Assembly (NCBI GenBank): GCA_005400705.1
Contig: GCA_005400705.1_4079.1
Strand: one strand, 5' to 3'
DNA: 64,000 nucleotides
Source of the DNA: Escherichia coli
Lineage (GTDB): Bacteria > Pseudomonadota > Gammaproteobacteria > Enterobacterales > Enterobacteriaceae
This document shows, in pieces, positions 3,944 to 44,727 of the stretch (its first letter is position 1; each line of letters opens with the position of its first letter). Both the position numbers and the translations under genes were made by a program. The notes below the pieces were generated by a model, which had not been told where the DNA came from, did no database searches, and saw nothing but the letters and a program-made list of their open reading frames with translations.

Positions 3944-4461
3944 TGATTGAACCTATGACAGTACTAGCACGTACTAAATTATTATTGAGGATTGGTGAGA
4001 TATTCACTGATATTTTGTACAGTGGGATTGATATACTTGAATTAGGCATTAAGCAACCGTGGGAATTAACCAAGTTCTCTGCGTTCCATCGTTTATCCTA
4101 TAAAGGGGAAACGGTTCTTGACTTGAACCCCAAAGCCAGATTCATGGACTATGCAGCTTTATATGGAACATGTGGAGGAATAACAAATGATTTCAAAGAA
4201 ATTAAAGTTCAAACAGCGTCACATGAATTTAATGATTTATTATATCCAGAATTTAAGTTAACAGAAGAATCATTCTTCCAGTACTCATTGATTTTAAAAG
4301 ATCTTAATGATTTAGAGTACTACAAAGAGTTAGTAGATATTTTTATTAATACACGACTTTCAAAAGATATTGTGATATTCTGGTATACAGAGCATGTTAC
4401 GGAGGAATTGCTTACTGAATTTCTTCTAAATATGACAGCTATAAAGGAGAAGTTATGTTAG
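3943..4461 (+). CDS. hypothetical protein (172 aa)
   Basis: ORF track; start overlaps upstream stop. Confidence 0.5.
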   Translation: MIEPMTVLARTKLLLRIGEIFTDILYSGIDILELGIKQPWELTKFSAFHRLSYKGETVLDLNPKARFMDYAALYGTCGGITNDFKEIKVQTASHEFNDLLYPEFKLTEESFFQYSLILKDLNDLEYYKELVDIFINTRLSKDIVIFWYTEHVTEELLTEFLLNMTAIKEKLC

Positions 4462-11096: not shown

Positions 11097-11626
11097 AAGA
11101 AACATGTGTATTAACGTTTGGTCGTATTAATCCTGTACATCGTGGACATGGTTTAGTTTTTGAAAAGGCCAAAACATTACAAGAACAGTACAATGCTGAT
11201 TTAAAAATATATCTAAGCACCAGTACTGACAATATAAAAAACCCACTCCCACCTGAACTAAAAATGTATTATACAGAGGGATTCTATCCTTCAGTGCAAG
11301 AGAACATCTACACAGAAGACAATCTGTTTGATATAATGAGAGAACTGGATGGAAAGTACTTAGATGTTCTTTTCATATGTGGTTCTGACCGTATTGATTC
11401 TTTTCAAAAAACTCTTGACATGTACAATGGTAAGTTGTATAATTTTTGTAGTATAAAAGCAATTCAGGCAGGTATTGACCGTAATGTAAGTCAATATAGC
11501 TCAACACAAATGCGTAACTTCGCAAAAAATGAAGATTTTGATAGTTTTCGTGAGTTTTTACCTGGAAATGACGAGGACTTAAAAATACAATTATTTGAAG
11601 ACGTTATAAAATACATGAGGAAATAA
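11093..11626 (+). CDS. HxGH-family nucleotidyltransferase, NMN/NaMN adenylyltransferase-like
   Basis: TFGRINPVHRGH (H/TxGH motif) and later SSTQMRN (ISSTxIR-like) typical of NadD/NMNAT-class enzymes; ATGA overlap with methyltransferase gene. Confidence 0.55.
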   Translation: MKETCVLTFGRINPVHRGHGLVFEKAKTLQEQYNADLKIYLSTSTDNIKNPLPPELKMYYTEGFYPSVQENIYTEDNLFDIMRELDGKYLDVLFICGSDRIDSFQKTLDMYNGKLYNFCSIKAIQAGIDRNVSQYSSTQMRNFAKNEDFDSFREFLPGNDEDLKIQLFEDVIKYMRK

Positions 11627-41926: not shown

Positions 41927-42265
41927 GTGAACTTTATGAACAAAATTGACGTTACTGTAGTGATTGGTTATATTGAAATTGAACCGTGTGGCATTGATAC
42001 CTTTATTGACACTCTTAATAAGTATCGTGCTGAATATAACGGTCCCATTAGTCTTTCACCCGACGGTGGTTACGGCGGTTTTCATGGATACAATGTAATT
42101 TGGACCAGAGAAGAAACTGACGAAGAATATAATACACGAATTGAAGCTGAATCTAAAAGATGTGAAGAAATTGAACGTCAAGAAATGAAACACTTAATGA
42201 ACAAGAAATCATTAAGTACCGAAGAGAAATCTAAACTGCTAAAATACATCAAGGATTACATGTAA
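41927..42265 (+). CDS. hypothetical protein (112 aa)
   Basis: ORF track. Confidence 0.5.
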   Translation: MNFMNKIDVTVVIGYIEIEPCGIDTFIDTLNKYRAEYNGPISLSPDGGYGGFHGYNVIWTREETDEEYNTRIEAESKRCEEIERQEMKHLMNKKSLSTEEKSKLLKYIKDYM

Positions 42266-42915
42266 TGAAAAATGTAACTCAAGAAAAGATTCTGTACCTT
42301 GCAAAGTACAATGGTGGTTTCAATATCATTAGCCGTGAGTACAGTGGTAATTTGGCTAAGTTGATTGACAGTTTGTTAGAATTTGATTTCATTAAATGGG
42401 GAACTAATGAACTTTGGTACGAATATGCTGGTCAGAAATGGGAAAGTGATTATGATAATGCAATACATTCATACACTATCACCAAAGCAGGTGAAGTTCG
42501 ATTAGCCATTATGCGTTGTGCATATACTTACAAAAATCATAAAGGTGAAGAAAAACATATTCGCAGAAATGAAGAGCTATTACTTCTCATGGAAGCAGCA
42601 AAAGTTACAATGCATGATTTGTTCCACCACCCACGTTGGTATGAAAATCTAACAAAAGCAGAGTACAAAGCTTTACGTTACATTGATGAACAAAACAACA
42701 CCCCAGTTGAAGTTGATGATGTTAGTGATGATGAACTAAGCCTCAAAAATGTATTTGAAAGTACCAGTACTGAAAGTATTACAGACATTTCTGTACAGAT
42801 GGCACTAAAAGCAATGGAACTTTTCAAGACACAATATGAAGGACACAGTGCTGAAGAAGTAGAGCGTGAGTTCATCACACGCGTACAGATTGCATTGTTC
42901 CAATCGAAAAAGTAG
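42265..42915 (+). CDS. hypothetical protein (216 aa)
   Basis: ORF track. Confidence 0.5.
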   Translation: MKNVTQEKILYLAKYNGGFNIISREYSGNLAKLIDSLLEFDFIKWGTNELWYEYAGQKWESDYDNAIHSYTITKAGEVRLAIMRCAYTYKNHKGEEKHIRRNEELLLLMEAAKVTMHDLFHHPRWYENLTKAEYKALRYIDEQNNTPVEVDDVSDDELSLKNVFESTSTESITDISVQMALKAMELFKTQYEGHSAEEVEREFITRVQIALFQSKK

Positions 42916-43122
42916 GATGATATGAAATATGAACATCAGTGATGGGTTATCATATAAAGAAGCAGGTAAAGATGGTGTCAAAGGTGAAGCTGTAGATCTT
43001 TGCATTTGTGCACTTGACATGTTCGCTTTGTAATGCGATAATATGAGTTCAGAAGAGATGGAACGTGAGTTCCTTACTTACATGAATGTTAAACTAGCCA
43101 AATGGCGTAAATCAATTCAATA
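42916..43122 (+). pseudogene. degenerate duplicate of the 3' end of the upstream gene, split across two frames
   Basis: translations ...AVDLCICALDMFAL* and MSSEEMEREFLTYMNVKLAKWRKSIQ* resemble upstream C-terminus ...ISVQMALKAMELF...SAEEVEREFITRVQIALFQSKK. Confidence 0.3.
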
Positions 43123-43132
43123 GGTATTTTAA

Positions 43133-44104
43133 ATGAAAACTAAAATTATTTCTGAACAAAAAATTGGCAATACTACAGTACTGAATCTTGAAGTTCAAGG
43201 TCTTAGTAATGTTCGTTCTCTTACGGTTTGTACTCAGAGAGATGATTTGACTGATTTCTATAGCTCAGAATACATGTCAGAAGAACCTTGGGGTATGGGA
43301 TGGTTGGACGGTAGTAGTTATATCAGTTCACGTTATAGTTTTGGTTCTCATGAAAATATTGAACAATTAAAAAATGAGTATATTAAACTCAGTGATACTA
43401 TTGAAATGAAAGAAGAAGATTGTGTAGAACTTTTCATTTTTGAATTCGATGCCGGAAATGGTAATTCATTACTAGTAAGTAATATTGAAGAACATTTAAT
43501 GTATCATGAAATTGAAGATGTAGATTTTGAAAGTATTAAAAATGTTGTTCATATGGTTGGTGGTAGTATTACTGATGATTCAGATATCGGTCATAATATT
43601 TCACTGTGCTTAATTTCTCATCCAAAAACTCGTGGTTTTAAAGTTCCACAAGATGAAACTTACGTGTCTGAAACTGCTGATGAAGGAATTTATCCTTGGA
43701 ATGATTATGTAGAATACTATGGTCATTTCTGTTCTGATACAAAAGAACTGAAAAAAGGCGAACAATATTTTGATATGTTCCGTGCTGCACAGCGTTTAGT
43801 ACTGAATAATACTGAACTATTTCCTGATCGCGGCGAAGAAAATATGATTGATATTATCTTCAAGAACTATGATTATGTACAGAACATTCCTGATAATGTT
43901 CATTTGGAATATGTTCACGGTTCTTCAAACAAATTCTATAATATTGAATTGAATGCTCCAGTGTGTGAAGTAATTATTGAGTACGGTGCTATTGGTAAAA
44001 CCAGTACTACTGATGGTGAAGAATTCGAAACTATTGAAGAAGCACGTAAGTTCTTCGAGAAGAAAGTAATTTCCAAAATTAAAAGTGGTTATAGCCCAAA
44101 ATGA
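43133..44104 (+). CDS. hypothetical protein with WGR-like C-terminal domain
   Basis: C-terminus SSNKFYNIELN...EYGAIG...EEFETIEEARKFFEKKVISKIKSGY follows the WGR-domain pattern with WGR replaced by EYG. Confidence 0.45.
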   Translation: MKTKIISEQKIGNTTVLNLEVQGLSNVRSLTVCTQRDDLTDFYSSEYMSEEPWGMGWLDGSSYISSRYSFGSHENIEQLKNEYIKLSDTIEMKEEDCVELFIFEFDAGNGNSLLVSNIEEHLMYHEIEDVDFESIKNVVHMVGGSITDDSDIGHNISLCLISHPKTRGFKVPQDETYVSETADEGIYPWNDYVEYYGHFCSDTKELKKGEQYFDMFRAAQRLVLNNTELFPDRGEENMIDIIFKNYDYVQNIPDNVHLEYVHGSSNKFYNIELNAPVCEVIIEYGAIGKTSTTDGEEFETIEEARKFFEKKVISKIKSGYSPK

Positions 44105-44481
44105 AAATCACACGCTTTGGTAAAACCTTTGAACTAAACATTGTTTCTGTTTATAAAAAAGGAAAATCAGGAAAGTTAAGCACTGATAATATTAGATTTG
44201 TTATTAGTGATTATTATGATATGTTTAATCAGGCATTTGAAGAAAATAAATTTGGTTTGATTTTATGTAAACCACAAAAACCGGAATTAGGTATTTTGGA
44301 TTTAAGAACTGATAAGTCTGATTTTATTGGTAATCTTGATATTATTGAATTTAAAGTTGATATATCAAAAGAACATTTTAGAGTTAAAAACTATAATTAT
44401 TACAAAGTTGATATTAATTCTATCGAAGTACAAAACGTACTTGATGAACTTATCAGTAATAATTCGTGTTTTACTAAATGA
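44101..44481 (+). CDS. hypothetical protein (126 aa)
   Basis: ATGA overlap. Confidence 0.5.
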   Translation: MKITRFGKTFELNIVSVYKKGKSGKLSTDNIRFVISDYYDMFNQAFEENKFGLILCKPQKPELGILDLRTDKSDFIGNLDIIEFKVDISKEHFRVKNYNYYKVDINSIEVQNVLDELISNNSCFTK

Positions 44482-44493
44482 GAAAAAAATATC

Positions 44494-44727
44494 ATGAAAA
44501 ATATATTCATTACATTAACAATATTTGTATCCATTATTCTCTGTGGTTGTGCTCCTAAAGTTGATGAGATGGATGCTGAAATCATCCGTCAAGGTTTAAC
44601 AAAACTAAATCACCAAGGAACACTATACGCATGTCATACTATGCGTCATGGGCAAGATCTTAATCTCATGTGCAGGAAGATTGTGAATCGCAAACGTCTT
44701 AATACTGTTCCGAAGGATGCACAATGA
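44494..44727 (+). CDS. putative small lipoprotein (77 aa)
   Basis: MKNIFITLTIFVSIILCGCAPK: signal peptide with lipobox-like LCGC. Confidence 0.5.
   Translation: MKNIFITLTIFVSIILCGCAPKVDEMDAEIIRQGLTKLNHQGTLYACHTMRHGQDLNLMCRKIVNRKRLNTVPKDAQ

Follow-up and report, generated by a model that had tools for sequence, protein, structure and literature searches.

In the 64,000-nucleotide stretch of DNA analysed here (hereafter the window), the gap that follows the gene at 42265-42915 contains two short open reading frames on the plus strand, one of 34 amino acids (42929-43033) and one of 26 amino acids (43043-43123). What these reading frames are, and how they came to lie there, is the question that this locus raises. 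A first-pass annotation had noted that both resemble the C-terminus of the product of the preceding gene, and had explained them as a decaying tandem partial duplication interrupted by a frame change, or else as a small split gene. The region shares 99.6% identity with Escherichia phage BF17, and megablast matches it to about 34 records of Asteriusvirus jumbo phages.

The resemblance to the upstream gene is genuine. The joined translation of the two ORFs aligns with the C-terminus of the 216-aa product by BLASTP with 14 of 53 residues identical (26%), 60% positives and a pairwise E value of 6e-10, and its Smith-Waterman score of 72 was reached by none of 2000 shuffled sequences, which scored 25.7 +/- 4.4. 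The frame change does not exist. The starts at 42929 and 43043 are both 2 mod 3, and frame 2 of 42916-43132 reads MNISDGLSYKEAGKDGVKGEAVDLCICALDMFAL*CDNMSSEEMEREFLTYMNVKLAKWRKSIQ*, so that the two ORFs are one reading frame separated by a sole in-frame TAA at 43031-43033. At the nucleotide level, a local alignment of 42600-42915 against the gap gave a best match of 27 nt, a score equalled in 10 of 300 mononucleotide shuffles; the signal that a duplication should leave is therefore absent from the DNA. As a whole, the initial observation was partly right: the homology is real and the frame change is not, and the segment was correctly described as a decaying 3' gene fragment, but by the wrong mechanism.

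Comparison with related phages revealed that the locus occurs in four arrangements. The first is that of the window, in which the 216-aa gene is followed by a 195-nt segment, a WGR-domain gene and a 126-aa gene; it is shared by BF17, UB, G17, slurp01, Sharanji, ELP-22, ECO103 4-12-1 and EC22.5-2. Both ECO103 4-12-1 and EC22.5-2 are 100% identical to the window across the stretch, and Sharanji, represented by its match figure only, matches at 97.7%, the same as G17 and slurp01. The second arrangement, that of SP27, PBECO4, phAPEC6, EC.P1, Ecwhy_1 and fEgEco12, is the first minus 86 nt (window 42921-43006) and, in SP27 and EC.P1, minus the 126-aa gene as well. In the third (JP4, 121Q, vB_Ec-M-J and others), the 216-aa gene is followed by a 59-aa lipoprotein-like gene, and neither the segment nor the WGR gene is present. 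In the fourth, found in UE-S1 and TH47, a 279-aa allele of the upstream gene is directly followed by the WGR gene. Counted by record, the full form of the segment occurs in eight and the short form in seven. The comparison upholds the homology of the segment to a gene, and it contradicts the tandem duplication.

The fourth arrangement identifies the segment. Positions 42929-43123 correspond to the last 64 codons and the stop (TAG, 43121-43123) of the 279-aa allele, hereafter allele B, the 216-aa form being allele A. The segment and the 3' end of the UE-S1 gene are identical at 192 of 195 nt (98.5%), and each of the three differences alters the encoded residue (S/R at 42938, stop/Q at 43031, S/P at 43049). 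At the place of the remnant, UE-S1 has an intact gene that ends in ...LEMNIRDGLSYKEAGKDGVKGEAVDLCICALDMFALQCDNMSPEEMEREFLTYMNVKLAKWRKSIQ*, and the intact long gene is also found in TH47. At the site of the nonsense codon TAA (43031-43033), the intact allele of both UE-S1 and TH47 has CAA (Gln), as does the short remnant of SP27 and EC.P1. The window's match to allele B begins at codon 216 of the 279, with allele A and a JP4-type spacer upstream; the identity to UE-S1 is 95-100% across 41957-42495, falls to about 40% across 42496-42928 and returns to about 99% across 42935-43132. The remnant thus holds helices 3 and 4 of the MazG-like domain discussed below, including the ExxD motif at 42986-42997, and lacks the 5' part of the gene and the EExxE helix. 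It combines the properties of a pseudogene fragment, namely homology to an intact gene, truncation, and disabling lesions that differ among lineages. We therefore consider it very probable that 42929-43123 is a pseudogene fragment, the stranded 3' end of allele B left by recombination between haplotypes, in keeping with the ordinary mosaicism of phage genomes.

The 34-aa ORF is annotated as a 'hypothetical protein' in BF17 (2430-2534 of our locus record L001), G17 (L002, 2430-2534), and slurp01 and ELP-22 (L010 and L011, 1130-1234). This annotation is an artefact of residual coding signal, and the 'hypothetical protein' of several Asteriusvirus GenBank records should not be counted as a gene.

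Had the 3' end of gene 42265-42915 been duplicated in place as a tandem copy, with the downstream copy decaying afterwards, the protein-level homology of the two segments and their head-to-tail order on one strand would be explained. However, the nearest relative of the remnant is allele B of other phages (98.5% at the nucleotide level) and not the adjacent gene (26% at the amino acid level), and genes of Klebsiella and Salmonella phages are also 77-79% identical to it, while the adjacent 3' end shows no nucleotide similarity to it beyond chance. A duplication old enough to have left 26% identity cannot also have left a copy nearly identical to a functional orthologue. Moreover, the two segments are separated by 13 nt, GATGATATGAAAT (42916-42928), which are identical to the JP4-type haplotype and include a foreign start codon. 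In JP4, 121Q and vB_Ec-M-J, allele A is followed by the 59-aa lipoprotein gene, and these 13 nt comprise the intergenic spacer and the opening 7 nt of that gene (ATGAAAT, 42922-42928). We consequently regard the tandem duplication as highly improbable.

The same 13 nt mark the left side of a recombination joint. Megablast matches to the JP4-type genomes stop at window position 42928, and allele B begins at 42929. Since JP4-type sequence, including the start of the lipoprotein gene, lies exactly at the joint, the arrangement points firmly to recombination between two haplotypes rather than to an in-place duplication of the neighbouring 3' end. Both haplotypes circulate among Asteriusviruses: JP4 and 121Q have allele A (216 aa) with the 59-aa lipoprotein gene, and UE-S1 and TH47 have allele B (279 aa) with the WGR gene. 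In the lineage of the window, a block of B-type origin, starting in codon 216 of gene B and carrying the WGR gene, would have been joined to a JP4-like backbone by illegitimate recombination, just past the first 7 nt of the lipoprotein gene. Such an event would have stranded a promoterless 3' fragment that lacks its own gene start.

The flanks of the window are about 99% identical to JP4 and 121Q and 91-94% identical to UE-S1. The WGR block is 97% identical both to UE-S1 and to EC.P1, the backbone of which is 86-90% identical. Import of the WGR block into a JP4-like backbone would thus be the most economical history. The reverse direction, in which an A block was imported into a B backbone, is the alternative to be weighed against this import: members of this family recombine freely, and the direction of exchange rests solely on these flank identities. 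Nor is the joint a clean product of microhomology. A crossover at the TGAAAT shared by the sequenced parents predicts GATATGAAATGAAC, whereas the window has GATATGAAATATGAAC, with two extra bases. These two bases imply either that the real donor lies outside the genomes examined or that the joint has been remodelled; in the former case, the joint of the true donor would be a B allele reading ...GAAATATGAAC.... The protein search yielded 64 relatives.

On the right, the variable block ends within the region 44494-44545 on the plus strand, where the signal-peptide part of a 77-aa lipoprotein gene differs from JP4 and 121Q, and homology to these phages resumes at the lipobox (...GGATGTGCTCCTAAAG), near 44545. 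The recombination boundary, as judged from these alignments, lies inside the signal peptide of this gene, which would accordingly be where the right-hand crossover occurred. The signal peptides of the 77-aa lipoprotein interchange, being MKNIFITLTIFVSIILCGC in the window and MKLLYIFIISSIVFLSGC in JP4 and 121Q (positions 4106-4160 of JP4 in locus record L006). Between the WGR gene and this boundary lies the 126-aa gene (44101-44481), which the window shares with BF17 and G17 and which is missing from UE-S1 and, among the phages of the second arrangement, in SP27 and EC.P1. The insertion of the 126-aa gene is flanked on both sides by the repeat AAATGA.

The relationship between the two alleles provides insights into which haplotype is the older. 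Allele A (42265-42915, plus strand) has its N-terminal half in common with the long allele, and its C-terminal half is shortened and diverged; in the alignment, it is the same gene minus about 63 residues, with the MazG-like core (the EELGE helix and ExxD) missing. The B-type C-terminal domain occurs in 118 phage records, among them members of the sister genera (K64-1, RaK2, Munch, GAP32, CBB and Serratia BF) and phages of Aeromonas and Vibrio, while the A-type C-terminus is confined to Asteriusvirus records. This distribution indicates that allele B is the ancestral form. A lipoprotein homologous to the 59-aa one directly follows the gene in K64-1 and follows an intervening 169-aa gene in Munch, so the order of gene and then lipoprotein would be the older, and the WGR gene a newcomer. 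The 279-aa form (UE-S1 locus 1762-2601) has intact acidic motifs. Most E. coli Asteriusviruses carry the 216-aa form. With neither the EELGE helix nor ExxD, allele A has probably lost its catalytic activity or been repurposed.

Two irregularities were observed in the records of this gene. In UE-S1 (ON568341; L005, 1432-2601), the 112-aa upstream gene and the MazG-like gene are annotated together as a single CDS of 389 aa, the stop of the former having been lost through a frame shift close to its end; either a genuine fusion or a sequencing error may be responsible. In phage UB (MH383160; L009, 1110-1122; window 42905-42915), an extra A in a run of A residues turns the ending ...QSKK* into ...QSKKVG*, giving 218 aa.

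The predicted function of the parent allele comes from three lines of evidence. Against PHROGs, allele B matches phrog_1247, 'MazG-like pyrophosphatase', at 5e-16, and the remnant alone matches it at 8.3e-10; allele A matches phrog_15672 and not phrog_1247. Across 35 homologues there is no variation at E207 E208 L G E211, at E215 or at E235 A V D238. The resulting acidic motif, EExxE ... ExxD, is intact in allele B; the remnant retains ExxD only, and allele A has neither part. An AlphaFold2 model of the UE-S1 protein (pLDDT 85) places C-terminal helices at residues 198-219, 231-250 and 256-278, and the only high-probability Foldseek matches were iMazG (0.94), YpjD (0.85) and DCTPP1 (0.60). The remnant maps to residues 216-279 of this model, which are its last two helices. 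Scans of both alleles and the remnant against Pfam and NCBIfam gave no match, and sequence searches of the PDB with a single sequence or a six-sequence profile returned E values of about 1, with YpjD among the noise. Based on the PHROGs match, the motif and the predicted fold, the C-terminus of allele B is likely to be a MazG-like, all-alpha nucleotide pyrophosphatase domain.

The state of the remnant in the relatives bears directly on whether it could be functional. In the window, BF17 and UB, the TAA is the only lesion. In G17 and slurp01, it is accompanied by a 4-bp deletion (43070-43073) that puts the 26-aa ORF out of frame, and in ELP-22 by a 13-bp deletion (42984-42996), which removes ExxD, and by an ATG to ATA change at 43043-43045. 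The SP27 group, of which SP27 and EC.P1 were read, has the 86-bp deletion and keeps CAA. Lesions that differ in this way among lineages are indicative of neutral decay.

A functional small gene, whether the 34-aa ORF, the 26-aa ORF, both, or a 64-aa read-through product, would be consistent with the ATG at 42929, which has an AGGA 12 nt upstream, with a frame that is otherwise open, and with the fact that gene callers annotate the 34-aa ORF. Nevertheless, the sister phages carry different disabling deletions: 13 nt are lost within the 34-aa ORF or 86 nt remove it entirely, and the 26-aa ORF is frameshifted or has lost its ATG. The product itself would amount to one half of a four-helix domain and would lack the EExxE helix. 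We also considered programmed stop read-through or recoding and rejected it. SP27, EC.P1 and UE-S1 have CAA at this codon, and in G17, slurp01 and ELP-22 the downstream ORF has been frameshifted or has lost its start. A scan of the window for a suppressor tRNA found no tRNA; the tRNAs reported for Sharanji (Thr, Asn, Met, Arg, Gly and two Ser) likewise include no suppressor (PMC11895373). The lineage-specific lesions and the absence of the 5' three-quarters of the gene thus rule out a conserved small gene and programmed read-through, and a functional small gene of any of these kinds, the split gene of the first-pass annotation among them, appears very unlikely.

It could be argued that the stop is a spurious one in a real gene of 64 codons, or that the contig was mis-joined, all the more as homopolymer errors do occur in this family, as in the extra A at the end of the 216-aa gene of UB. 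However, the TAA is present in seven other aligned records (BF17, UB, G17, slurp01, ELP-22, ECO103 4-12-1 and EC22.5-2), which excludes a sequencing error, and the joint likewise recurs in these seven records, which were sequenced independently; Sharanji, in its match figure, is like G17 and slurp01. In addition, the 5'-truncated structure does not hinge on the stop. The chance that the segment is an artefact of assembly or sequencing is therefore negligible.

The pseudogene fragment may nonetheless have retained a use. The cargo of the imported block is the WGR-domain gene (43133-44104, plus strand), which encodes 323 aa with a long N-terminal part, and 90 nt upstream of its ATG, inside the remnant, lies a consensus match to a sigma-70-like promoter (43014-43042, plus strand): TTGACA (43014-43019), a 17-nt spacer and TGcGATAAT (-10 hexamer at 43037-43042), with 11 of 12 positions matching and the TG of an extended -10. 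The window contains 15 motifs with at least 11 of 12 matches on the plus strand and one on the minus strand, against about 3.3 expected per strand. Ten of the 15 on the plus strand lie inside ORFs, often near their 3' ends (e.g. at 11415, 63448, 5101 and 35520). The motif is also found in the intact gene of UE-S1 and, slightly altered, in EJP2; Munch lacks it in the gene and has an intergenic TTGACA-N17-TATACT right after the homologous gene. A terminator scan over 42200-44600 found no terminator-like site on the plus strand; two weak hairpins were noted on the minus strand, and these are by-products of the EREF-coding palindrome GGAACGTGAGTTCC.

The WGR gene is polymorphic for presence or absence among the records, and in this data set it is always accompanied by at least 126 nt of the 3' end of allele B. 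Every lesion in the relatives spares the motif, and the 86-bp deletion stops 7 nt short of the -35 box, although the carriers are too similar for conservation statistics. This sparing of the motif may explain why the remnant has been retained: the 126 nt that persist in all carriers would hold the promoter and 5' leader of the WGR gene, within what is the end of the gene in intact allele B. Co-option of the dead gene tail, with its 3' 126 nt as promoter and 5' leader of the WGR-domain gene, is a reasonable possibility, to which we give somewhat less than even weight. If it is correct, what spreads among diverged Asteriusvirus backbones would be the WGR gene together with the tail of the MazG-like gene, the promoter having arisen in coding sequence (codons L-D-M ... 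D-N), and it would be understandable that every deletion stops short of the -35 box. The WGR block is approximately 97% identical across backbones that are otherwise 86-94% identical, suggesting its recent horizontal spread. The Asteriusvirus papers on Sharanji and UE-S1 contained nothing relevant to MazG, WGR or a promoter.

This locus is a worked example of how such a remnant arises, as both parental haplotypes and the recombinant survive, and the joint, the likely direction of exchange and four steps of decay can be read from them. It also draws attention to a jumbo-phage gene that is predicted to be a fusion ending in a MazG-like pyrophosphatase domain, the catalytic core of which is missing from the version in most E. 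coli Asteriusviruses. The locus is nevertheless a case of ordinary mosaicism of phage genomes, well resolved, and will not surprise a phage genomicist.

Comparison with known systems places each element of the locus. The four-helix domain of allele B resembles the MazG superfamily (MazG, iMazG, YpjD, HisE, DCTPP1/RS21-C6) in its EELGE...E...ExxD motif, in its PHROG match and in its predicted fold, which is similar to those of iMazG, YpjD, HisE and MazG. Unlike them, it is matched by no Pfam or NCBIfam model and is fused to an N-terminal domain of roughly 140 aa; in the window, only its last two helices persist, as a dead sequence, while the expressed allele A lacks both acidic motifs. The WGR gene, for its part, recalls the phage 'morons', which are extra genes with their own promoters inserted between conserved genes. 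Like a moron, it is found between conserved neighbours in some phages and missing there in others, is almost the same in diverged backbones and is preceded by a strong sigma-70-like motif. The difference is that the candidate promoter lies inside former coding sequence, and not in a dedicated intergenic region.

The closest parallel to the remnant itself is provided by the 'novel joints' and gene remnants that illegitimate recombination between related phages leaves in mosaic phage genomes, according to the model of Hendrix and Juhala. The locus shares with them a sharp transition between haplotypes that ignores gene boundaries, a truncated piece of a gene at the joint, the survival of both parental arrangements in relatives, and the decay of the piece through lineage-specific lesions. 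There is no essential difference. One side of the joint lies 7 nt into the lipoprotein gene and the other within a diverged allele that is homologous to the gene upstream, and for this reason the product mimics a tandem partial duplication.
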